DNA from: a virus
Length of the DNA stretch: 64,000 nt
Virus record (IMG/VR): IMGVR_UViG_3300040801_001435
Reading direction: 5' to 3' (one strand)
Program-made: the position numbers and the translations under genes
Shown: positions 7,727 to 63,132 of the stretch, piece by piece
How the letters are laid out: every line of letters begins with the position of its first letter
How positions within the stretch are numbered: position 1 is the stretch's first letter
The notes under the pieces: model-generated
Databases searched by the model: none
What the model was told of the DNA's origin: nothing
What the model saw: the letters and a program-made list of their open reading frames with translations, nothing else

Positions 7727-8161
7727 TCATTTGTTGAGAAACGTAATAACATTTCTTACAATATCCATCGTTAATCCGTGCTTCCAAAAATCTGTTTGAA
7801 AGAATCTCTCTTTTGGGATTTTTGGAAGCATTTTATCATCTAAGACACACCATTTTTCAATGGATGTCTCAGATAACCACTTATATATTTCCAATTCTCT
7901 TGGAGGATGATATCCTCCAAGATCCGGAGTTTGGCCGATTATAAGGTTTGGATTTACCAAACCTTTTTCGACAAACCTTCTTGTAATTTCTCGCAGTGAA
8001 AATGATCGTTTCCACATACTTGAAATTATAAATCGACAGTTTGTTTCAAGTGCGATTGTATTTAGTAGTCGCACTTTATTTCCTTGTAAATAGTTGTGCT
8101 CATTTTCAGGATATACATTAAATACCCCATCAATATCAAGCACAACAATCTTATTAGTCAT
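7727..8161 (-). CDS. HAD-superfamily phosphatase (RNA-repair-like)
   Basis: IVVLDIDGV motif I, IISSMW motif II, WCVLDD motif IV; start probably ATG 8161. Confidence 0.8.
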   Translation of the reverse strand: MTNKIVVLDIDGVFNVYPENEHNYLQGNKVRLLNTIALETNCRFIISSMWKRSFSLREITRRFVEKGLVNPNLIIGQTPDLGGYHPPRELEIYKWLSETSIEKWCVLDDKMLPKIPKERFFQTDFWKHGLTMDIVRNVITFLNK

Positions 8162-8302
8162 ATGAATGCTATCCCTGATTATTCCGGGATATACATTCCT
8201 TCTATTGATCATTACTTTGGAAGGAGAATAGGCCATGAATAAAATGTCCTTTACTCCCATGCTTATATATATTTCTATATATAAATCGAAAAACTAAAAA
8301 TT

Positions 8303-17091: not shown

Positions 17092-17469
17092 ATATCGTTA
17101 TTCTCCTGGGATATTGGACTTTCCAATATTCCTTATTTAATTCCGTGTAAATATTCAACCATTTGTGATTGATACTGTTCTGTTGGTTCAGGTAGTTCCT
17201 TTTTTAATATATTATACATTCTTTTAAATTTTATTTTATCAAGCCAAGATGCGTGTTTAATAAGCACATCTAGGCACAACATACACAAATACCCCGAATG
17301 AGTATTATGTGAGTTACTATACCAGTCAAATGATGCATTGTAAATATCTACAATTTCATATGACTTAGACTGTTCCAAAATCCTATCAATGATCGGTTTA
17401 AATATCACGTTGTGAGTTCCTTTCTTTGTAGTTAGTTCAGTTTACACAGATATTTAAAAATTTCTATAG

Positions 17470-18102
17470 TTATTGTTTAATTATACAATTTTCTTTTTTG
17501 AAAGTTAACATTAAAAGTCGTGGTATTTCTCTTGCTATTAATCCATCTTCAGATAATCCATATGGACATGTCCATGCACCATGCAATTTATTTGGAGACA
17601 TATCTACACTTTCAAAATCTGATAGAATATCTTTAAATTGGGATCTTATACTGGATATATTTTCTTTACCTTTCAGATGAACTATTATATGAAATGATCT
17701 TTTTCCAGTATAATATATTGTTTGATTTTTAAAACCAACTTTCAATAGATAATCGTATATAAACATTGTATCTTCTTTATTTTTACTAAAATCTTCACCA
17801 TCGATATCAACAATACATATATTTTCTAATTCTTTCATAGTTGGATAAAGAACAAGCGTTCTTCCAGTTATTATTTTTTCATAATTATCGTTTGTTAATA
17901 TAATTTTACCATCTTTGAAATTTCGTCTGATAATTGTTTTATTTGTATCAATTGCTATTCTAAACATTATATAGCGATCTTGTGTATATGCTAATATTTT
18001 ATTCTTATTTTTGATATAATGTTTATAAATTGTATCTTCTGGCAATCCTTTCGGATAATACTTATTTCTTAATATTATTGTTTGTGGATTATTCGGAAAC
18101 AT
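17470..18102 (-). CDS. AEP-superfamily primase/polymerase (LigD Pol-like)
   Basis: CIVDIDG (motif I DxD) and YYTGKRSFHIIV (motif II). Confidence 0.75.
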   Translation of the reverse strand: MFPNNPQTIILRNKYYPKGLPEDTIYKHYIKNKNKILAYTQDRYIMFRIAIDTNKTIIRRNFKDGKIILTNDNYEKIITGRTLVLYPTMKELENICIVDIDGEDFSKNKEDTMFIYDYLLKVGFKNQTIYYTGKRSFHIIVHLKGKENISSIRSQFKDILSDFESVDMSPNKLHGAWTCPYGLSEDGLIAREIPRLLMLTFKKENCIIKQ

Positions 18103-33058: not shown

Positions 33059-33830
33059 GATTATTATTCTCCCAATTTAAATTTGCAGTTTCTGTTTTTC
33101 CACAATATTGGCATTGTCTTTTAGGTATTTCCCCTTCAAAATAATACTTGAAATCATGACCAATTGTTTCACACGTCTCGTTGAATATTTTATCAAATTT
33201 ATTTATAACATCAGTAAAAATATCATCTTGTGTAATTTTTTTAATCTGTAAAATTATCTCATGAGCAACATTAAGTGCTCCCATTGGTGATACATGTAGT
33301 TGTATATATTTATACTCTTTATCATTTTCTTTAATTTCAAGAATATTATCAAATATTGGTGATAAATCTATAGAAATATGGTTATCATGTCCAACATATA
33401 CTTGTCTACTCATTGAATAATTCATTTTTGTTTCTATATTCATTTGTATACTCCTGCTTTTTCAAGAAATTTGTAACAAGCAATTTCTCTATTTATTATA
33501 TGATTACTTGGTGTATTAACATTTTCCTTACAGAATTCACATTGCATAGTTTTGAAATCGTTTTCGTCATCAATATGCCATAAAAAATGATTTCCTTTAG
33601 AACAATATTCCTCTTTTACGAAACTCATTAGTGTGTTAAGAGTATTATCAAGAAGAGTTCTAAATCCAGCGTATTTATTTTCTTTACCAAATTTAATAAT
33701 ATTGATTAATATTCCAATAAGATCTTTTTCTGTTATATTAATTGAACTAGATAATTCACCTTTGATTAATGTTACAAGTTTATTTTTATCTAATGTTATA
33801 ATGTTCCCATTATAATCAGCATATAATTGT

Positions 33831-43267: not shown

Positions 43268-43726
43268 TTAAGATACTGCCAAATATTCATGGTCTTTTTT
43301 AAGCTCATTAAATGGTAATTTTGCCGCAGCTTTTGCCATTTTGTCACAAAGTTCATTTTCTGTATGTCCGGCATGTCCTTTAATCCACTCAAATTTAATT
43401 GTGTGTCGTTTTTGTTCTTTTATCATCTCTAACCATAAATCTTTATTTTTAACGTTTTTCCATCCACGTTTAATCCAACCATCTATCCAATTTTTATTAT
43501 ATGCATTTGTTACATATTGACTATCGCAGTATGTAACAACTTCTGAAGGATTTTTAATAGACTGTAATCCTCGCACAAGTCCCATTAGTTCCATTCTATT
43601 ATTTGTTGATAATTCGAAACCTTCAGAAGCAGTAGATACTATGGCGCCATTTTGTTTAATAATATATGCCCATCCACTTTTTCCAGGATTTCCTAAACTA
43701 CTTCCATCTGAATATATTTCAATCAT
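43268..43726 (-). CDS. rnhA: ribonuclease HI
   Basis: YSDGSSLGNPG, TNNRMEL, CDSQY, NKDLW, WIKGHAGHTENELCD. Confidence 0.97.
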   Translation of the reverse strand: MIEIYSDGSSLGNPGKSGWAYIIKQNGAIVSTASEGFELSTNNRMELMGLVRGLQSIKNPSEVVTYCDSQYVTNAYNKNWIDGWIKRGWKNVKNKDLWLEMIKEQKRHTIKFEWIKGHAGHTENELCDKMAKAAAKLPFNELKKDHEYLAVS

Positions 43727-44919
43727 TATATAAATCTCCCAAACCTATCAACTTCCGTATATGGAATAAGTGATACAGTTCTTCCTGGTTTTTGACTACT
43801 TACTGTAATTGGACAAATTCTTCCAAAATGTGTTTCATGAATTGTTTGTATTTCTTTTGGAGGATGTTCTACACCAGGAGATACCATATTAACTTTATGT
43901 TGAGGAATACTACTGAAGAAATTTACTGGTTCATATATATAATTTCCTGATAATCCTCCCATTTTCTTTCCAGCGGTATTAGTTTGTTGTTTTTTACCAG
44001 AAGCTCTAAAATATTTAATTATAGACATATTATCTATTTTTATTTCATCATATAAAATCCCTCGCCAAACTTGTTTAGCGAAATTTGCGATTTTATCAAA
44101 AAATGGCCGCAATAACAACTCAATAAAAATTAATCTTTTATTAGCCAAGTCAACAAAGTTAAACGTGTCTTTATGAATATATTTATTAAGTGCCCATACT
44201 AACAAATATTCCAAATCAGAAGAAGAATAACAAGTATTATACAATTCATCTGTATAATAGTCAAAAATTACATCAGATATAAATTGTCTTGCTTTATCTA
44301 TATCATCAATGTTATTATTTCCAAAAGCATTTCTAAAATAAGTTACAATTTCCTCATCCGGATGAGTATCATGTTGTTTTTTGTGATTTTTAAGAAACGC
44401 ATTATATAATTCTAAACTTTCAACCTTTTCAAAAAATAATTGAAAGAAATATGATAGTGGTATATTTATTCCAGTTAAAATTGCAATATCATCTTTAAAA
44501 TAAATAGTTAAACCATTCAACAATCCATAGAATTGTATACTTTTTTCTTTGATAATAATAGGATAATCAACAACATACATTGCTGGAACATATATTGTTC
44601 CATTTAGATTGAATGTGCATCCATCTAACAATGTTGGTATTAGAATGTTTAAAAATGTTTTTTCATATTTTTCTTCATCTGTTGTATATGCGTCAGTTTT
44701 TATTATTAGTTCGCTAAAACAACTATTAAATAACCCGATATAATTTATCCGTTCTTTGAAATCTATATTTTTAACATTAATATATCTATTACCAAATTTC
44801 AATAAATATTCCATAGCAACAGAAGCAAAATATGGTATTATGCTATATTGATATTCTCTGAAATTAGTAACAGATAATATATCAGTATTTGGTTGTTTTC
44901 TTTTTTGTAGTGTATTCAT
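43726..44919 (-). CDS. phage RNA polymerase beta subunit, N-terminal part
   Basis: Ends with IHETHFGRICPI...GR (beta VHPTHYGRVCPI region); coupled to the beta-C gene. Confidence 0.75.
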   Translation of the reverse strand: MNTLQKRKQPNTDILSVTNFREYQYSIIPYFASVAMEYLLKFGNRYINVKNIDFKERINYIGLFNSCFSELIIKTDAYTTDEEKYEKTFLNILIPTLLDGCTFNLNGTIYVPAMYVVDYPIIIKEKSIQFYGLLNGLTIYFKDDIAILTGINIPLSYFFQLFFEKVESLELYNAFLKNHKKQHDTHPDEEIVTYFRNAFGNNNIDDIDKARQFISDVIFDYYTDELYNTCYSSSDLEYLLVWALNKYIHKDTFNFVDLANKRLIFIELLLRPFFDKIANFAKQVWRGILYDEIKIDNMSIIKYFRASGKKQQTNTAGKKMGGLSGNYIYEPVNFFSSIPQHKVNMVSPGVEHPPKEIQTIHETHFGRICPITVSSQKPGRTVSLIPYTEVDRFGRFI

Positions 44920-46880
44920 TACAATTGTAATGCCTTTAATAGTGTTGTCACTACTTTCTTTGTTCCAACTTCCATCGTAATATCTGTTGGCATTTCATAA
45001 TATCCTTTTTCTATAAGTTGTTCTAATAAATTTTCTTTTCCAGCAGTATAGTCAGATTTAACAGTATATAATTCATGAAGTGCTTTAGGACATCCAGAAC
45101 TTAATATAGCTTCGGCTTCCATTTGTCCTACTCTAACGCCACCTTTTAGTGCTCTACCCTTCACTGGTTGTTTTGTAATAGATTTATATGGACCAACATT
45201 TCTAGATGCTATTATTTTTTCTGATATTTTATTTAATTTAACAGTATAAATTGGTGCACACATTATCCCATCAACAGTCTTATCTATTGCTGGAAATGGT
45301 AGCTCAATACGCAAACATTGACGCATATATTGTAAAAACTTTCTGCTTTGAAATACTGGTTCATTCAATTGCACTGAGTTGTTTTTAATCTTTTCAATAT
45401 TGATGTGTTTAAATGGTGGTGCTTCAACAAACAAATTGGAAGCAAATATGCTATCTATAACAGTTTTTCTAATAGACGTATCATTATCCATATTATTAAT
45501 CAATCTTTCAACATCACTACTATATTCAATATCGTTGAAATTATCAATGATATTTAGTTTAATCCATTTAAGTGTATCTGTAATTTTATCAGGATTTGTA
45601 CGAATATAGTTATCACAAATCATCATATTTTTTGATATTAATGCTTCAGGCATGACACTTATATTCATTCGACTTGGAACACCAAATGAATTAAACATTA
45701 CATCAATTGGTTTATTTGTTATTGTTGATATTGGTCTTAATTCATCTGGTAGAATATGTCCAACAACACCTTTTCCTGCATATCTATTGCATATTTTATC
45801 ACCAACTTTTGTATTTTCTTCTTTATAAATATCACACTCGATAATATATACAGCATTCAATATATCGTTTCTATTGGTTGTTATATTATCTTGTCTATTT
45901 GAAAATACAAAGTATTTTGCCATTATAAATTTGCAATATTCGTCACTGAAAGTATTGTTCAAGTCGAAAAATGCATTCATTGCATATTTCTTAAAATACA
46001 AAATATGCATGTTCTCTAAAACATTTTGTAAGTTATCATCAATAAGTCTAACATCATCTTTCAACTTATGAATTCTATATCCTTGAATAATACCACTGTT
46101 TATTTTTGTTTCAATTGGTTCTGTAGAGAAATTTGATGACCCATGATCAAATCCTATCATATCAGATAGATTCATTGATTTAAGCATTATTGTCATTTTT
46201 TGCTTTATATCGCTCATTGAATGATAATCTGATATTTTTGGTTCTATTTTCATTGCAAATATATTATTTGTTATTTGCTGACCAATAGCAGGAAAATATT
46301 TGAAAGATTCTACATCATTTTTATATATTGGTTGAAATATTGAATGTTCAAATACCGGAATAATAACTCTATCTATATACCGGTGTTTTGCTTTATTTGC
46401 AAAACTTTCAGATATAACAATTCCATCTTCATGATTATATCCAAAAAATGGCATCATTGCTGTATAAGCATTATATCCAAATGATGGTACTCCTGTTCTG
46501 AAACAATCATATTCGTATATAATGTCACCTTTCATAAAAGGTGTATTTGATGGTAAACAAAATCGTAAACTTGAACTGAAAATACCTATAGATTTTTTAA
46601 TAAGAGGTATTTCTTTAATTTCTATTTTATTCAATCCTGTATAGTGTATAACAATAATGTCATTATTTTTATAAATAACATTCCCATCATCTTTTGCTAT
46701 ACATATTCCAAGTGGACTATTATTTGTTATATCTCGATAATCTGTTGATGTCACATATGGTATTTCACAATTAGTGTGTGTTAGTGCTTGTGTTATTTGT
46801 TTTGCTGCCATCTGCATTCTTGTGCTATCACAAGAACCATCAAACGGCTGGCCTGCTAGATTTGAGCTTACTATCGACAT
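44919..46880 (-). CDS. phage RNA polymerase beta subunit, C-terminal part
   Basis: RMQMAAKQITQA, GYNHEDGIVIS, GDKICNRYAGKGVV, GVPSRMN, KGGVRVGQME. Confidence 0.93.
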   Translation of the reverse strand: MSIVSSNLAGQPFDGSCDSTRMQMAAKQITQALTHTNCEIPYVTSTDYRDITNNSPLGICIAKDDGNVIYKNNDIIVIHYTGLNKIEIKEIPLIKKSIGIFSSSLRFCLPSNTPFMKGDIIYEYDCFRTGVPSFGYNAYTAMMPFFGYNHEDGIVISESFANKAKHRYIDRVIIPVFEHSIFQPIYKNDVESFKYFPAIGQQITNNIFAMKIEPKISDYHSMSDIKQKMTIMLKSMNLSDMIGFDHGSSNFSTEPIETKINSGIIQGYRIHKLKDDVRLIDDNLQNVLENMHILYFKKYAMNAFFDLNNTFSDEYCKFIMAKYFVFSNRQDNITTNRNDILNAVYIIECDIYKEENTKVGDKICNRYAGKGVVGHILPDELRPISTITNKPIDVMFNSFGVPSRMNISVMPEALISKNMMICDNYIRTNPDKITDTLKWIKLNIIDNFNDIEYSSDVERLINNMDNDTSIRKTVIDSIFASNLFVEAPPFKHINIEKIKNNSVQLNEPVFQSRKFLQYMRQCLRIELPFPAIDKTVDGIMCAPIYTVKLNKISEKIIASRNVGPYKSITKQPVKGRALKGGVRVGQMEAEAILSSGCPKALHELYTVKSDYTAGKENLLEQLIEKGYYEMPTDITMEVGTKKVVTTLLKALQL

Positions 46881-47630: not shown

Positions 47631-50600
47631 TTAGATTAACCGACCATAACATAATTTGAAGTAAACATTCATGTCGGTTTGTTCAGATATTTCAAAATTA
47701 AAATTAGGAAGTGTTTTCCTATTAGGCTGAAATAGTGCTCCTAAGAATGGATCAATATTTACAGCTATACTTTTATCATTGAGTTTTTTGGTTATTTTTT
47801 TATTTTGATTATATCGCCAAAACTCAACAGGGTCATTTTTGTTATTTGTTAGAAACATATTTGCAAATATCATTTCTACAAACGAAGAATATGGTGTACC
47901 AACAGATAAAATATATTCCATCATTTTTTGATAATATACACTGGGATGTTCAACTGTATATTTTCTTGTAGTCTCTTTAGTAATTAGTAGTTGATTTACA
48001 CCATTAATAATTGAAATAACATCATCGTTATATATTTCATAATAATTATCGTTATATATTAATGTTGTTCCATCTTTTTTTTCAAATCCATTTAGATTAT
48101 ATATTTCTTCTGGGAAATCATCATTATTAAAATGACATAATATTTTATTATCATTTAATTCGATATCTACTAAATGATTCTTCATAAACGATATAATTTC
48201 TTTTTTTACGTTAATATTTGCTGCACCACTAGTATGAAATGTTTGCATTGTTAATTGTGTTAATCTTTCAGATATGCTTTGTGCTGCAATTATACCAACA
48301 TATTGTGATACAAAGTTACGTTCACCAAAACACTTTTTACACATTTTAAATTTAGGATTAATGCATGTTATTGGAGATCGTATATAAACGTCTTTGCCGA
48401 TAAAACTTATTGCAGTTTCTAAATCAAATGTGCCTGAGTTATTATCAATGACATAATTTTTACCAACAAGTGAATAAGCATGATTTTCATTAATAACATG
48501 TATTTTTAAATAATTTGTTGTACAACAATCATCCATATCTATCTCTAAAGGACTTAATGCCATTGCCAATGATCTTTCCATATAGCCGCTATCAGGAGTG
48601 GCTTTACTTTTATCACCAATACCTTTTCGACTTCCTGGAGCACCTCTGAAGAATTCCTCTTCAGTAAATCCTATTAATAGATTTGATTTTATTGGACTTT
48701 TAATGATTTTGTTATTATCATCAGAAACATATCCGGCGTTTATACATATTTTCGCTAATTGATTAGCGTTAACTCTACTACCGGATTTATAAACATTTAA
48801 TAATTTATTGGTATTGCTACAAGATTCTATACATTTTTCTACAAGTGCTTTATTTACACAATATCCTACCATTATATTTTGTTTTGGTAGATTTTTAAAC
48901 ATCTGTTTATGTTTGTCATTGACAAACTCTAACATATCATCTATGTTCATTGATGGCGTATGGCTTGTAGAACTTATGAAATACATTAATTTTTTACTCA
49001 AATCAGTTAGTCTATCATAATAAATTGCTGATGTCTCTGAGTCTTTTAAAATCTTTTCACTTATTTTTCTTGATGTTTTTTTATCAATAATAAAGTCTAT
49101 TTCAATATCATCAACGAACCCACACCACTTATTTAATAAACATAATCCATATGGATATATATTGTCATTAAATTTAACAGGTTGATTCAAATTATTATCA
49201 TATAATTCATCTGATTCTGGCAAAGTTTGTAAATTTTCAAGTTCAATTATTGGTTTATCATTACATGAAATTTGTGTTGATAGAACATATGCGCCGTATA
49301 ATGCTTCATGTCTTATTGAAGAAAGAATCCTGTTATCTGATTGGTAATGTGTTATATTTTTAACAAATGCATTTTCTTTCATTTGCTTCAATGATTCTAC
49401 ATCATGTACATAATATAATGCTAATTGATCACCATCTAAATCAGCATTCATCATTTCTAAAATTGGCGGCGATAATGCTATTGTTGTATAATCGTTATCT
49501 TCTGGAACAATTTCAACAACAGGTATGCTATGCGCCCATAATGTTGGTGGTCTATTCAAAAACACCAATCTATATAGTTGAATAGTTTCATCTTCATTTT
49601 CACAAAACCAATCCAAGAATTCTTGAAATTGTTCTTTTGATTTGTCAGACTGCATAAATTCATCATAACAATAATCATATTCCAATCCACGAATACGTGT
49701 CATATAGTACATGAAATGTGGTTTCCATAATGTATATAATATATCTTTACTTACTTTAATTTGATATGTTGGTAATGATGGATCACATCGTATAACTGCT
49801 CTTGCGCTAAAATCAACATTTTTACCAAGAACACTACCACGAATTAATCCTTTCTTTCCAGACAATTCATCATAATATGATTGATATATAACATTAACAT
49901 AATATTGATATTTTGATGCTTTTATATCATATTCAATTATAGTTGGGTCTATAAATGGGGAAGCATAATATTCATCAATATCATGTATATTCATTTTTTT
50001 AAGAAGTATATCAATCCACATTTGTTCATCATCATTAATACGACTAGCTATTGCCGCATTTGTTCTTTCGTATATTAATAATGTTGTATAGAACTTATTT
50101 ATTGGTGGTGTTCTAACCACTTTTGTTTGTGGATCATAAAATAATGCTCTCAAACTTGGTGGAATAACATGAATAAATGACATTACACATTTATCATAAA
50201 TATTTTCTATAACTGGCACTTTAATATATTTAGCTATTATTTTTAAGCATAAATAAAAACTATATATACCTGTTATATTTATTGGTAATAATAAAAACCC
50301 AGCATGATGAATAAATCGATTAAATACTTTAACCTCTGATAGGTCGTTACTTATTCCTATATATCTTTCGGTGTTTGTTAAATAATCGGCTCTATTTGGG
50401 TTTAATATTATACTATGTGTATTTCCTAATATTTTTGTTAATAGTGCTTTCGTAGTTGGTTTGAAACATGGAAATGTAAGATTGATCTTTCCAAAAACTT
50501 CATATCTTAATTCATTAGAATCACAAACAACGCCACACTTTGGACATTTTTGCTTTTCAAATAATGATCTGTCTCTATAATATTTACATTCTTGTCCGCA

Positions 50601-50729
50601 TGTATAGTTATTAACAGGTCCGAATATTTGTTCTGAAAACAGTCCAAATGGATCTATTTTCATATTCTTTAGAGTACCTTTTGGAGATGTTACATATCCT
50701 CCTAGTTCTGGATATATTATATCATTCAT
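47631..50729 (-). CDS. phage RNA polymerase beta' subunit (compact, unsplit)
   Basis: GLFSEQIFGP, Zn ribbon, GKKGLIRGSVLGKNVDFSARAVI, NRPPTL, NADLDGD, bridge helix, trigger loop TQLTMQTFHTSG. Confidence 0.95.
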   Translation of the reverse strand: MNDIIYPELGGYVTSPKGTLKNMKIDPFGLFSEQIFGPVNNYTCGQECKYYRDRSLFEKQKCPKCGVVCDSNELRYEVFGKINLTFPCFKPTTKALLTKILGNTHSIILNPNRADYLTNTERYIGISNDLSEVKVFNRFIHHAGFLLLPINITGIYSFYLCLKIIAKYIKVPVIENIYDKCVMSFIHVIPPSLRALFYDPQTKVVRTPPINKFYTTLLIYERTNAAIASRINDDEQMWIDILLKKMNIHDIDEYYASPFIDPTIIEYDIKASKYQYYVNVIYQSYYDELSGKKGLIRGSVLGKNVDFSARAVIRCDPSLPTYQIKVSKDILYTLWKPHFMYYMTRIRGLEYDYCYDEFMQSDKSKEQFQEFLDWFCENEDETIQLYRLVFLNRPPTLWAHSIPVVEIVPEDNDYTTIALSPPILEMMNADLDGDQLALYYVHDVESLKQMKENAFVKNITHYQSDNRILSSIRHEALYGAYVLSTQISCNDKPIIELENLQTLPESDELYDNNLNQPVKFNDNIYPYGLCLLNKWCGFVDDIEIDFIIDKKTSRKISEKILKDSETSAIYYDRLTDLSKKLMYFISSTSHTPSMNIDDMLEFVNDKHKQMFKNLPKQNIMVGYCVNKALVEKCIESCSNTNKLLNVYKSGSRVNANQLAKICINAGYVSDDNNKIIKSPIKSNLLIGFTEEEFFRGAPGSRKGIGDKSKATPDSGYMERSLAMALSPLEIDMDDCCTTNYLKIHVINENHAYSLVGKNYVIDNNSGTFDLETAISFIGKDVYIRSPITCINPKFKMCKKCFGERNFVSQYVGIIAAQSISERLTQLTMQTFHTSGAANINVKKEIISFMKNHLVDIELNDNKILCHFNNDDFPEEIYNLNGFEKKDGTTLIYNDNYYEIYNDDVISIINGVNQLLITKETTRKYTVEHPSVYYQKMMEYILSVGTPYSSFVEMIFANMFLTNNKNDPVEFWRYNQNKKITKKLNDKSIAVNIDPFLGALFQPNRKTLPNFNFEISEQTDMNVYFKLCYGRLI

Positions 50730-57799: not shown

Positions 57800-58400
57800 A
57801 TCAAAATTTCGAAGGAACCCGATCACACGGGTTTGACGGTTATCTCATTTTGAAGGGACTTATTTCGACTGTGTTCAGATAAGTCCCTGATTTTATTTAT
57901 AGCAAATCTGTAACTATTGGAAATGGCAACTATATGGCATTCTGAATTCCATTCAGAGAAAAAATTTCATTTTCAAAACATTATTAAGCATTTGATTTTT
58001 CAAAATTTTTGAGTCAAAATTTGTATATTCTCCCCGTCATATAGAAATCTCTAGAATAAATAATTTATTTATAATTTTTTGAAAATTATAAATTTGTGTA
58101 AACTAGATAGTTTGAATATCTAGTTTAACTAAAGTTACTATTTTTATACTAAACTAGCTATTTTAGAATGATTAGCTTTAAGCTAGATAATACGATAATA
58201 TAGTTAACTAAATTAGCTATTTTGTGCTAAACTAGCTAGTTTGACTAGTATAGAATAAGTAGTTACAATGCACTATGATTATCATGATAAAAAAGATAAT
58301 CTAGCTAAATTTGCTAGATTACTATTTATATTTTTATTGAATTTATATTTGTAATTAAGAGATATTAGATTGATCCTCAGATTATCAAATAATCTGCTTT
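57800..58400. other. putative replication origin
   Basis: 600 bp non-coding; hairpins 57816-57833 and 57854-57888; 26-bp repeat; ten CTAG sites in 58051-58317; AAACTAGCTA twice. Confidence 0.5.
57910..57935. repeat. 26-bp dispersed repeat, copy 2
   Basis: gtaactattggaaatggcaactatat. Confidence 0.9.
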
Positions 58401-59834: not shown

Positions 59835-61454
59835 ATGGAGGAACAAGTGCGACTATCACAACGACTGATAATAATAGACAACGGATTAGATTTTAAAGGA
59901 ATATTACATTGTGGTGTATTGCGTGTTGTTGATAAATTTTGTTTTGAACTGAAATTAAGACGGTTTAAAATTATCAGTGATGAAATTTTCGCAACAGTTA
60001 AATCTGAAATAAATAAACACTCATTTGATAGAGTTGATTTGATTGACAAGATTGATAATGATATATTGTTCACTCATTTAATGTCGTTGTATGATTGTGA
60101 ACAATATTATCAATTTTTAGGTAAACAAATTAATCATATTTTAACGAATGACCCGGATAAAAGCAACAATAAATATTATCGATTTATTATTGATAATAAA
60201 CTTAAAGTTATTTTATCTCTTATTGATGCTAAACGATTGTATTCTGATATCCAATCTTTTGTAAATAATTATATGACGCTTGATAGTATTTATAAACTAA
60301 TTATGACGCAACAATTGTCAGATACTTCTATTGAAGATCATCATGATCCTGAATATTATGATTATGTAAATAATGTTGCTGCTGATGTAAAAGAAACTCT
60401 TCATGAAAAAGATCTACAAAGTGGGATCATTGAACAATCGTATTTTGATGATGTATTGGATTTATGTTTAAATAATGCTGTTAAATCATATATTTTACAT
60501 GAGACACTAACATATTTTGGAACGAATTCCGCCGCAATAAAACACGAAGACAATAAAATAATATTACCAAGTCTTTTCAGAAACATACCATTTTTCCCTT
60601 CAAGTTATCTTAAAACATTAATTATATCTCTGTCAAAAATAGGCGAACATAAATTAGATCATTATATAGGACAGATTATTGTTTATCTTAAAAGTAATAA
60701 TAAAGACCAAGTTAAAATATTTATAGCTACATTTTTATTGTTTTTATATTATTTGGTTAAAACTTATAAAACACATCCAGGAGATGTCTTGTTGTCATTA
60801 GAAATTTGGATTTCTAAAATTGAAACTCAAACTAAATTATTGAATTATTATACACAAGATAATAATTTAACATTTGAAGTTATTTCTGTTAAAGAAGAAA
60901 ATGAATTTGATAAGATATCAGAAATATCAGAGAAACATAAATATCTACTTAGAGTTTCTCCTGATGAATTTGTAACTACTGTTTTTACCGAATATATCGA
61001 TTTAAAAGAAAATAAACAAAAACCGATGTCATTTAATTTATCACATCCAACGGTTATTAATATTACTCGTTACTTTTTTAATGATAACGTGACTATGCTT
61101 ACAAATTATAGACCAAATCAAGAATCAAATCCAGAAGTGATAACTTTTGCATATGGGTATTTTCTTAACTTTGTTTCTAGTTCTGATTTGTCTAAAGATA
61201 TTCTTCTAAAAAATACAACTATTCCAATCACGGTATTAAAACTATTTCCTATATTATCGAATAATATTAATAGTAAAAATTTTAATAAAGACATTGTAGA
61301 TACGTTTGTTTTTTATAAAACTGTTTGTGGGTTTTTAGAAGACCCTTCTATATTTCAGCATATTGATATATTGTATATAGTATTTCAAATTATTATTCCT
61401 TATTATTATCATATGTATGAACAGACAACTTTTACTGATTACTTTTTGGGATAA
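59835..61454 (+). CDS. large hypothetical protein
   Basis: 539 aa, no recognised motif. Confidence 0.75.
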   Translation: MEEQVRLSQRLIIIDNGLDFKGILHCGVLRVVDKFCFELKLRRFKIISDEIFATVKSEINKHSFDRVDLIDKIDNDILFTHLMSLYDCEQYYQFLGKQINHILTNDPDKSNNKYYRFIIDNKLKVILSLIDAKRLYSDIQSFVNNYMTLDSIYKLIMTQQLSDTSIEDHHDPEYYDYVNNVAADVKETLHEKDLQSGIIEQSYFDDVLDLCLNNAVKSYILHETLTYFGTNSAAIKHEDNKIILPSLFRNIPFFPSSYLKTLIISLSKIGEHKLDHYIGQIIVYLKSNNKDQVKIFIATFLLFLYYLVKTYKTHPGDVLLSLEIWISKIETQTKLLNYYTQDNNLTFEVISVKEENEFDKISEISEKHKYLLRVSPDEFVTTVFTEYIDLKENKQKPMSFNLSHPTVINITRYFFNDNVTMLTNYRPNQESNPEVITFAYGYFLNFVSSSDLSKDILLKNTTIPITVLKLFPILSNNINSKNFNKDIVDTFVFYKTVCGFLEDPSIFQHIDILYIVFQIIIPYYYHMYEQTTFTDYFLG

Positions 61455-61496
61455 AAATAATTCACTATGTGTCCAAGTGACACATAGTATTTTTTT

Positions 61497-61705
61497 GTAA
61501 ACAAACAGAGAGCCCATGACATCCGAAGACATCATGGGCTCTCTGTTTGGGAAGACAACACCTCTAGTTTATTAGTGTCTCATAGTCCGAAGACTACAGA
61601 GGAGGACTCGCTTGCGCGAAACCTACCAAATGATAGTCATTTCACGCAAGGTTGACCTTGAGACATAAAATTAAAGAGCCTATTCAAATAGACTCTTCTT
61701 TTTTT
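61497..61705 (-). ncRNA. unidentified structured RNA
   Basis: Two cUUCGg tetraloop hairpins, a multibranch core, G-U pairs valid only on the minus strand, upstream TATAGAAAT at 61716-61724. Confidence 0.65.
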
Positions 61706-61983
61706 CACCTTTATAATTTCTATATGTATTTTTTAATTATACAAATTAATGTTTAGCTGTAGATATTACTGGAGCAAAATTTCCAGTTTTAATTGCTTCG
61801 GTGATATGTTTATCTAATTTATCTCGTTCCATCATTATTTTATTTAATGATATTGGATCAGCAACATCAACAACATATATTAGCAAGTCAAGTAAACTTA
61901 ATAGATACAATAATTCTGTGTCTATAAGTGTTCCACTTGAAATCTTGCTAATAAATAATTCTATTGTGTGTTTTATATTTTCT

Positions 61984-62337
61984 TTATTTTTGTCCAACAA
62001 GTTTTTCTAATGCTTTCATATTAATATTGAATACAGATGGTATATTTTCTCGCAATAGTTCTGAAATCAATTCAGATTTGATTTTGTTTGTGTTTTCTCT
62101 AAATCCTTTCAATTCATTTCTTAGTGTACGTATTTTTACTTGTTGATCATGTTCCAGTTCTTTACAGCGAAGAAATTCCGAAATTAAATGTTGTGTTGAT
62201 TCTGATATTCCTAAATCTTCTCTTTTAGTAACAGTAAAGTCAGTTTTTTTAAAGACAGATTTTTTCCACATAGTTTTAGTCTCCATAGTATTGTCTAAGT
62301 TTTTTGTAATTGATTGTGAAAAATTCGGTTTTACCAA
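61984..62337 (-). CDS. small coiled-coil protein
   Basis: Heptad-rich; paralog-like to adjacent 62276-62563 (ELLRENI vs DLLRKLM). Confidence 0.55.
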   Translation of the reverse strand: MVKPNFSQSITKNLDNTMETKTMWKKSVFKKTDFTVTKREDLGISESTQHLISEFLRCKELEHDQQVKIRTLRNELKGFRENTNKIKSELISELLRENIPSVFNINMKALEKLVGQK

Positions 62338-62655: not shown

Positions 62656-63132
62656 ATGATTAGAAAAAAGAAGCGTGTTAAACGCAAAAAAATATATTAT
62701 ACATATAAAGGTAATCGTTGCAGTAAAGGTGAATATCGAATAGCAACCATACTTGAAAAATTAAATATTCCATTTACAAGAGAACAAACATTTTCTACAT
62801 GTAAATCTCCTAAAAACAATCCTCTTAGATTTGATTTTTTTATTAAGCAATATGGTCTTCTTATTGAGTTTCAAGGACATCACCACTATAAACCAATAAG
62901 TAAGAGAAAGAAAGATATTGCCACACATAAGCGGACTGTAATACATGATCAAATCAAAGAAGCATTTGTTAGAAGACATAAATACAATTATGCTAAAATA
63001 CCATATAAATACATTGATAGATTAGATAGTATTATTAAATCATTAGTTCGTAACATGGAAGAAAAAAATAAAGAGGATGTATATATTTATGACGAAGCTA
63101 ATAAAGAAACAGATAACAACTCAGATAAATAA
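62656..63132 (+). CDS. PD-(D/E)XK / Vsr-like endonuclease
   Basis: SKGEYRI...LRFDFFI...LIEFQGHHHY. Confidence 0.7.
   Translation: MIRKKKRVKRKKIYYTYKGNRCSKGEYRIATILEKLNIPFTREQTFSTCKSPKNNPLRFDFFIKQYGLLIEFQGHHHYKPISKRKKDIATHKRTVIHDQIKEAFVRRHKYNYAKIPYKYIDRLDSIIKSLVRNMEEKNKEDVYIYDEANKETDNNSDK

Follow-up and report, generated by a model that had tools for sequence, protein, structure and literature searches.

The 64,000-nt stretch of viral DNA analysed here (IMG/VR record IMGVR_UViG_3300040801_001435, hereafter the window) comes from an uncultured AT-rich phage, has a mean GC content of 28%, and carries the genes of a multisubunit RNA polymerase (beta' at 47631-50729 and the beta halves at 43726-46880) together with a DNA ligase and a primase-helicase. 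A GC-rich, structured stretch (61497-61724, minus strand) sits between two convergent ORFs, the minus-strand one (84 aa) ending at 61746 and the plus-strand one (539 aa) at 61454. The 84-aa ORF closes a three-gene unit driven by a copy of the 9-nt motif TATAGAAAT at 62629-62621, and none of the three small proteins of this unit had a family match. The 539-aa protein (P0001) gave no significant match in Pfam, PHROG or the PDB, its AF2 model was unreliable (pLDDT 48), and a feature-based atlas search returned weak helical-repeat look-alikes and nothing better. The exact protein is present on four JGI/IMG contigs, and its relatives are P0002, which is 59% identical, lies on a 9.2-kb Logan/ENA contig and was the one homolog found among 5.8 billion proteins, and a 585-aa protein in the related record G001 (IMGVR_UViG_3300025605_000018). 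The variable 58-64 kb region of the window, in which the structured stretch lies, also holds a free-standing HNH or homing-endonuclease-like ORF (62656-63132, plus strand; PHROG 559, E 2e-21), 900 nt from the structured stretch.

The features of the locus are listed below, the pair probabilities (p) being those of a partition-function fold of 61716-61497 on the minus strand.

59835..61454, plus strand: convergent 539-aa ORF without an assigned function, listed as genomic context and not as a partner of the RNA
61463..61498, both strands: two-way intrinsic terminator hairpin, a presumed back-up stop after the RNA on the minus strand
61502..61549, minus strand: P5, the 3' hairpin, 22 bp with a cUUCGg loop and tandem G-U pairs (p 0.97-1.0)
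61550..61575, minus strand: linker containing AGAGG and UCUUCCC, with a weak 4-bp hairpin (p ~0.7) or serving as a pseudoknot partner
61576..61665, minus strand: branched core, with a closing stem of 6 bp, the long arm, the C/U-rich strand of the junction and an arm capped by cUUCGg
61665-61660 with 61581-61576, minus strand: closing stem of the core (p 0.63-0.8)
61658-61603, minus strand: long arm of the core (61650-61611 at p 0.75-0.98), including the bulged GCGUGAAAU/CUAUC helix
61598..61605, minus strand: CCUCCUCU, an anti-Shine-Dalgarno-like junction tract; CCTCCT occurs only twice on the window's minus strand
61597-61582, minus strand: GUAGUC-UUCG-GACUAU arm (p 0.64-0.89)
61673..61698, minus strand: P1, the 5' hairpin, 11 bp with a UUGA loop (p 0.8-1.0), followed by a U-rich tract at 61672-61666
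61716..61724, minus strand: the candidate RNA's copy of TATAGAAAT, a full 9/9 match 21 nt after the upstream ORF's stop; presumed start region of the RNA
61736..61763, minus strand: sigma-70-like TCTACA-16-TATAAT, part of a 30-nt block shared with another promoter region
61746..62000, minus strand: upstream 84-aa ORF, last of the three-gene unit, without a family match

Read 5' to 3' on the minus strand, the unit is thus ordered as a promoter motif, an 11-bp hairpin with its U tract, a 90-nt branched domain, a linker, a 22-bp cUUCGg hairpin and a U-rich tail. All the sequence elements described in the initial annotation, from TATAGAAAT through to the final hairpin, were located on this strand, including both of the UUCG tetraloops (one on the arm 61597-61582 and the other on the hairpin 61549-61502) and the long UUCG-capped final stem, which we count as 22 bp where 21 had been given. 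Over the entire window the minus strand holds just two CTTCGG hexamers, which are the two tetraloops of the candidate RNA.

The predicted fold of this stretch is exceptionally stable. On the minus strand 61497-61724 reached -90.5 kcal/mol (z -8.9), with none of 200 dinucleotide shuffles as good, while the plus strand of the same stretch was 20 kcal/mol weaker (-70.3 kcal/mol, z -5.6). When 200-nt windows were slid along both strands of the whole 64 kb (1,277 window positions) and the folding energy was regressed on GC, 61501-61700 on the minus strand emerged as the top GC-corrected fold outlier of the 64-kb window, at -6.0 sd. The branched core by itself (61572-61668) retained a z of -4.5, so the signal does not come from the long hairpin only. 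The region had also been described as much richer in GC than its surroundings, which agrees with our figures of 43-50% for the structured stretch versus 28% for the window mean.

The strand was said to be fixed by the G-U pairs, and this argument held up. The minus-strand fold contains 10 G-U pairs, of which 8 lie in helices with p>0.75, versus 3 in the plus-strand fold, and no A-C mismatch is present in the confident minus-strand helices; these observations point to a minus-strand RNA. Since G-U pairs become mismatches in a plus-strand RNA or in a DNA cruciform, they argue against both a plus-strand RNA and a DNA palindrome, and the asymmetry favours selection acting on the minus-strand RNA.

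The multibranch core proposed for the RNA stood in part. The predicted domain is branched, but the four-way junction that includes the aagg-tcaa-cctt arm came out about 6 kcal/mol worse than a three-way alternative (-29.8 versus -35.7 kcal/mol), in which the long arm is lengthened (CUUG/CAAG plus AGG/CCU) at the expense of this one. The two halves of the suggested pseudoknot, CCUCU at 61602-61598 and AGAGG at 61565-61561, are both present on the minus strand, where the 3' five bases of CCUCCUCU could pair with AGAGG. Such a pairing would be sterically possible and compatible with the rest of the fold, and it would displace the weak 4-bp hairpin of the linker; as 5 bp between single-stranded tracts in one sequence, however, it is no more than chance would provide. 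We treat the branch topology and the 5-bp pseudoknot of the candidate RNA as provisional.

The motif at the presumed start of the RNA is one that the phage uses repeatedly. TATAGAAAT occurs 16 times in the window versus 3.8 expected, a count that none of 100 shuffles reached, and in 13 of the 16 copies it lies 7-57 nt 5' of a start codon, mostly with an AAGGAG-type ribosome-binding site; among these gene-leading copies are those of the two divergent gene pairs (55.1-55.2 kb and 59.76-59.80 kb). Related IMG/VR records carry it at a similar frequency (15 copies in 66 kb of G003 and 6 in 34 kb of G001), and in G001 it precedes genes. Because it is enriched, placed before genes and common to relatives, we regard TATAGAAAT as a lineage-specific promoter or 5'-end motif, probably a promoter for the phage polymerase. 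Our search of the published literature on this promoter motif found nothing relevant. The claim that the RNA has a promoter motif of its own is thus borne out in silico, with a 4-fold enrichment of the motif. The copies outside this pattern are those at 33369(+), 58040(+) and 61724-61716(-). The second of these (58040-58048, plus strand) is not followed by an ORF and runs into the non-coding 57.8-58.4 kb block; a further non-coding transcript, or a primer RNA, may start from it.

The RNA's copy of the motif is embedded in a 30-nt block (TTGTATAATTAAAnAATAnnTATAGAAATT; 61715-61744) that is 90% identical to 17459-17488 on the minus strand, the promoter region of a 91-aa gene at 17408. This shared block, being wider than the 9-nt core, may represent a promoter subclass or a dual host/phage promoter. 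The sigma-70-like site within it carries little weight, since sites of this kind were no commoner in the sequence than in shuffles.

Downstream of the RNA's copy of the motif there is an SD-like AAAGGUG with no start codon within reach, and no translatable ORF with a ribosome-binding site follows. The sole ORF of at least 40 aa in the stretch begins inside the 22-bp hairpin, and coding for a small protein was rejected because no start codon is suitably placed.

The intergenic region is also rich in termination signals, with five terminator-like sites found by a consensus scan of 61200-62000 versus 0.1 expected. On the plus strand, the 539-aa gene is closed off ahead of the structured region by the hairpin 61464-61488 and the T7 run that goes with it. 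On the minus strand, P1 together with UUUAAUUUUAU is terminator-like, was flagged by the scan, and lies only ~15-45 nt after TATAGAAAT; it may be the end of the upstream three-gene operon, a leaky attenuator or the RNA's own 5' hairpin, and so near to the presumed start it could stop many transcripts ahead of the core. At the other end, P5 has a GC-rich upper stem of 12 bp and a lower stem in which an A-rich strand faces a U-rich strand that runs into UGUUUGUUUAC. An A-U-rich lower stem followed by such a tract is the classic layout of an intrinsic terminator, and P5 is therefore the presumed terminator of the RNA, although the ordinary terminators of this phage have stems of 9-11 bp versus 22 bp in P5.

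The initial annotation had considered that the structure might simply be stacked terminators of the convergent genes. A hairpin followed by a U run is seen at P1 (minus strand), at 61463-61498 (both strands) and arguably at P5, and it is lacking from 61665-61550, which comprises the 90-nt branched core and the linker and contains no U run. As each of the convergent units already possesses a conventional terminator outside the 165-nt core 61665-61502, simple stacked terminators were ruled out for this segment, which termination alone does not explain.

Known RNA families did not account for the structure. The Infernal scan that had been suggested, run with Rfam 15 (4227 models), gave no match at gathering thresholds anywhere in the 64-kb window. 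A permissive scan of 61350-61850 reached at best 13-24 bits versus thresholds of 44-110, these scores coming from miRNA and sRNA models aligned to the generic long hairpin. This negative result is informative, since the same Rfam scan detected three tRNAs and two group I introns in the relative G002 (IMGVR_UViG_3300035039_000082). ARAGORN likewise found no tRNA or tmRNA in the window, and within 61350-61850 there was no self-cleaving ribozyme (hammerhead, twister, pistol, hatchet or HDV-like) and no group I or II intron even at E<=10, in keeping with the reported lack of a tRNA, tmRNA or hammerhead signature. The loops of the candidate RNA are UUGA, AUUU and two UUCG, with no GNRA loops, T-loops or long conserved-looking junctions, a repertoire that suggests a stable scaffold displaying single-stranded tracts, unlike a ribozyme or riboswitch.

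We then looked for relatives of the RNA by several routes. A distant blastn search of 50,697 phage records gave AT-rich chance matches only, no second copy or repeat family of the RNA was present within the window, and neither the exact 36-nt hairpin nor an 18-nt pattern from the 5' part of the core had any match in IMG/VR. Through an alignment of beta' we reached 80 IMG/VR loci, of which the nearest were 40-46% identical; nhmmer with the RNA found nothing in these loci, and a covariance model (R1) with the window's core as its sole input recovered only the window itself from the 80 loci and the full records G001-G003. A pattern joining the junction and the UUCG loop had 1 match in IMG/VR, 10 in JGI metagenomes and 2 in GTDB genomes, all attributable to chance, and R1 was negative on those from IMG/VR and JGI. 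Searches of IMG/VR with the 539-aa, AAA, primase-helicase and beta' proteins, each alone, returned no relatives, and alignment A1 found nothing in the JGI metagenomes.

Synteny with the relatives showed that only core replication and transcription genes are held in common and that the 58-64 kb region is variable. In G001 a different unit, without the RNA, comes after the 585-aa counterpart of the 539-aa ORF; this places the RNA in the variable region. At that locus (L081:3190-3680, plus strand) the order is the 585-aa homolog, TATAGAAAT, a ~130-nt leader that holds two hairpins plus a terminator-like U run, and a thioredoxin-like gene; a further GC-rich structured stretch is cut by the contig end. 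The record G002 holds two GC-rich, ORF-poor islands on the plus strand (L085:4185-4400 and L089:3880-4240; z -5.1 and -6.6), each with a terminator at its end; they match no Rfam family and are not homologous to the window's RNA. Its two group I introns are adjacent, and its three tRNAs form a cluster (L088:4478-5135 and L085:11837-12157, both plus strand); the window has neither.

The reading towards which we lean, without strong conviction, is that the minus strand carries, from 61716 to ~61497, a gene for a phage ncRNA of ~215-220 nt, either stand-alone or at the end of the operon, predicted here from a single sequence. In this part the proposal of a novel phage ncRNA stands, being consistent with the fold, the G-U bias, the motif, the terminator and the lack of an ORF or family, all of them observed in silico, from which we infer transcription, the RNA ends and every functional part. 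Nothing supports the suggested labels of ribozyme and decoy: no ribozyme family matched, and UUCG, UUGA and AUUU loops are not tertiary-contact motifs. Transcription would start at TATAGAAAT (61724-61716) and would stop at P5 (22 bp, UUCG-capped) and the U-rich tail after it, the two-way terminator behind acting as a back-up. Given its place at the close of the three-gene operon, this copy of TATAGAAAT resembles an internal promoter, and the RNA may also be produced as the 3' end of the operon transcript. Its GC-rich helices with cUUCGg caps could form a nuclease-resistant scaffold in a genome of 28% GC.

As to what such an RNA might do, the most likely mode of action under the ncRNA reading, which we put forward tentatively, is that of a trans-acting base-pairing regulator. 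CCUCCUCU, which holds the anti-Shine-Dalgarno hexamer CCUCCU, and UCUUCCC are mostly unpaired in the fold; exposed in the junction and the linker respectively, they might base-pair with the GGAGG-type ribosome-binding sites found in mRNAs of the host or the phage and so block translation, and the internal purine tracts AAGG and AGAGG might mask them. No antisense or seed target inside the phage stood out: when the unpaired tracts were matched in silico to 112 phage translation-start regions, the duplex energies fell within the range of the shuffled controls.

The nearest known kind is that of the small ncRNAs mapped in virulent and jumbo Pseudomonas phages. Abundant ncRNAs of ~90-210 nt, derived from UTRs or begun at start sites of their own, are made by virulent phages, jumbo ones included: PAK_P3 produces ncRNA1, ~210 nt long, abundant and processed from a 3' UTR, and ncRNA2 of ~120 nt, and phiKZ has 5'UTR and 3'UTR RNAs as well as promoter-led short RNAs (PMC10914365). 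The candidate resembles the phiKZ and PAK_P3 RNAs in size (~90-210 nt), in its intergenic or operon-end position, in having a promoter or processing site and a terminator, in being free of ORFs and in having no known function. It differs from them in that they have been detected experimentally and are conserved within genera, whereas the candidate is only predicted; the two share no sequence relationship and belong to different phage lineages with presumably different hosts.

Comparisons with bacterial RNAs were less close. The candidate has its putative promoter at the very end of the upstream operon and would have a 3' end in common with read-through transcripts, as do 3'UTR sRNAs of the MicL/DapZ type, which have their own internal promoter and share the terminator of the mRNA. 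Those sRNAs are Hfq-dependent and enterobacterial, with short seeds and simple folds, whereas the candidate has a 90-nt branched GC-rich domain and no known chaperone or target. With the RsaE/RoxS-type sRNAs of Bacillota, which are C-rich and act by base pairing, it shares unpaired pyrimidine tracts complementary to GGAGG ribosome-binding sites; unlike them it has no Rfam match, carries these tracts in a junction and a linker rather than in hairpin loops, and has no target predicted above background. The Rfam motifs ROOL, GOLLD, manA and wcaG are likewise phage-borne, strongly folded and without a known function, but none of them matches, and ROOL and GOLLD are 500-800 nt long with many conserved unpaired positions, whereas the candidate is ~220 nt and consists mostly of perfect helices. 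Finally, a cloverleaf-like branched domain and a long stem beside a ~540-aa protein without an assigned function recall the YrlA Y RNAs; however, there is no match to Y_RNA, YrlA or tRNA, the loops UCAA, AUUU and UUCG of the candidate have 4 nt each, with neither a D-loop nor the 7-nt T-loop of a tRNA-like cloverleaf, and YrlA RNAs sit next to Ro60/Rsr, whereas the candidate's neighbour lacks a TROVE domain. A Ro60/Y-RNA pairing with the 539-aa ORF was accordingly rejected, there being no TROVE domain in the ORF or its two homologs and no PDB match.

Other explanations have to be weighed against the ncRNA gene. The element might be a 3'-end module, that is, a structured 3' UTR of the upstream three-gene operon and an insulator between the convergent units, whose hairpins would halt the polymerase, avert collisions and hold off 3' exonucleases; the copy of TATAGAAAT would then be incidental or a weak internal promoter. 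Its position exactly between the convergent ORFs fits this idea, three of its hairpins resemble terminators or could pass for them, and the other convergent junction in the window, at 57.8-58.4 kb, is likewise long and hairpin-rich. The ~210-nt ncRNA1 of PAK_P3, itself processed from a 3' UTR (PMC10914365), is a further point in its favour, and by this precedent the 3'-end module shades into the ncRNA reading. We nevertheless find it doubtful, though worth keeping in mind: P1 with its U tract and 61463-61498 already terminate both directions and leave 165 nt of branched structure over, typical terminators of the phage have only 9-11 bp, and the TATAGAAAT copy matches at 9/9 positions within a 30-nt block common to a real gene promoter.

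An unlikely reading is that of a conditional-termination switch, in which most transcripts from TATAGAAAT end at P1, and the domain beyond it responds to a signal or a protein and so sets how far minus-strand transcription extends antisense into the 539-aa gene. A terminator-like hairpin within ~45 nt of the promoter, purine and pyrimidine tracts able to form alternative pairings, and promoter-led leaders with terminators elsewhere in the lineage (for example in G001) would all suit such a device. It would, however, have no downstream minus-strand gene to regulate and would be followed by two more terminators after the core, no riboswitch or leader family matches it, and its near-perfect, very stable helices would be unusual for a switch. 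We think it very unlikely that the fold is a by-product of a relic or DNA-level element, be it the remnant of a mobile insertion (an intron, a homing-endonuclease cassette or a miniature element) or a replication or packaging site. Such an origin would account for a GC-rich island in a variable region that is absent from the relatives examined, with a homing-endonuclease-like ORF 900 nt off and group I introns in relatives, but the window has no second copy, no flanking direct or inverted repeats were seen besides the hairpins, no intron or ribozyme model matched even though the scan finds the two introns of G002, and the eight G-U pairs oppose a DNA palindrome and favour selection on a minus-strand RNA.

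Should the ncRNA gene be real, it would be a well-delimited small RNA gene with no catalogued family, defined by promoter motif, terminator and a length of ~220 nt, in a poorly known lineage of uncultured RNA-polymerase-encoding phages. RNAs of this sort are candidates for roles in host take-over or anti-defence and are almost unexplored outside model phages. An improbable extension is that it is the founding member of a new class of phage RNA, hyper-stable and branched, that acts on the host and not on phage genes, for instance by mimicking an anti-Shine-Dalgarno sequence and so titrating or hiding the ribosome-binding sites of the host, or as a decoy for an RNA-sensing defence or an RNA-binding host factor. 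If this were true, related uncultured phages would carry a non-homologous repertoire of such RNAs, of which the islands of G002 would be examples. The worth of the present prediction is that of a precise target for transcript mapping, not of a discovery.

The fold scan of the whole window also brought out a second site. The second-strongest GC-corrected outlier of the window lies at 7740-7960 on the minus strand (z -8.3), where three long hairpins fall within the ORF 7727-8260; they could be an intragenic RNA element, or the ORF could be miscalled.
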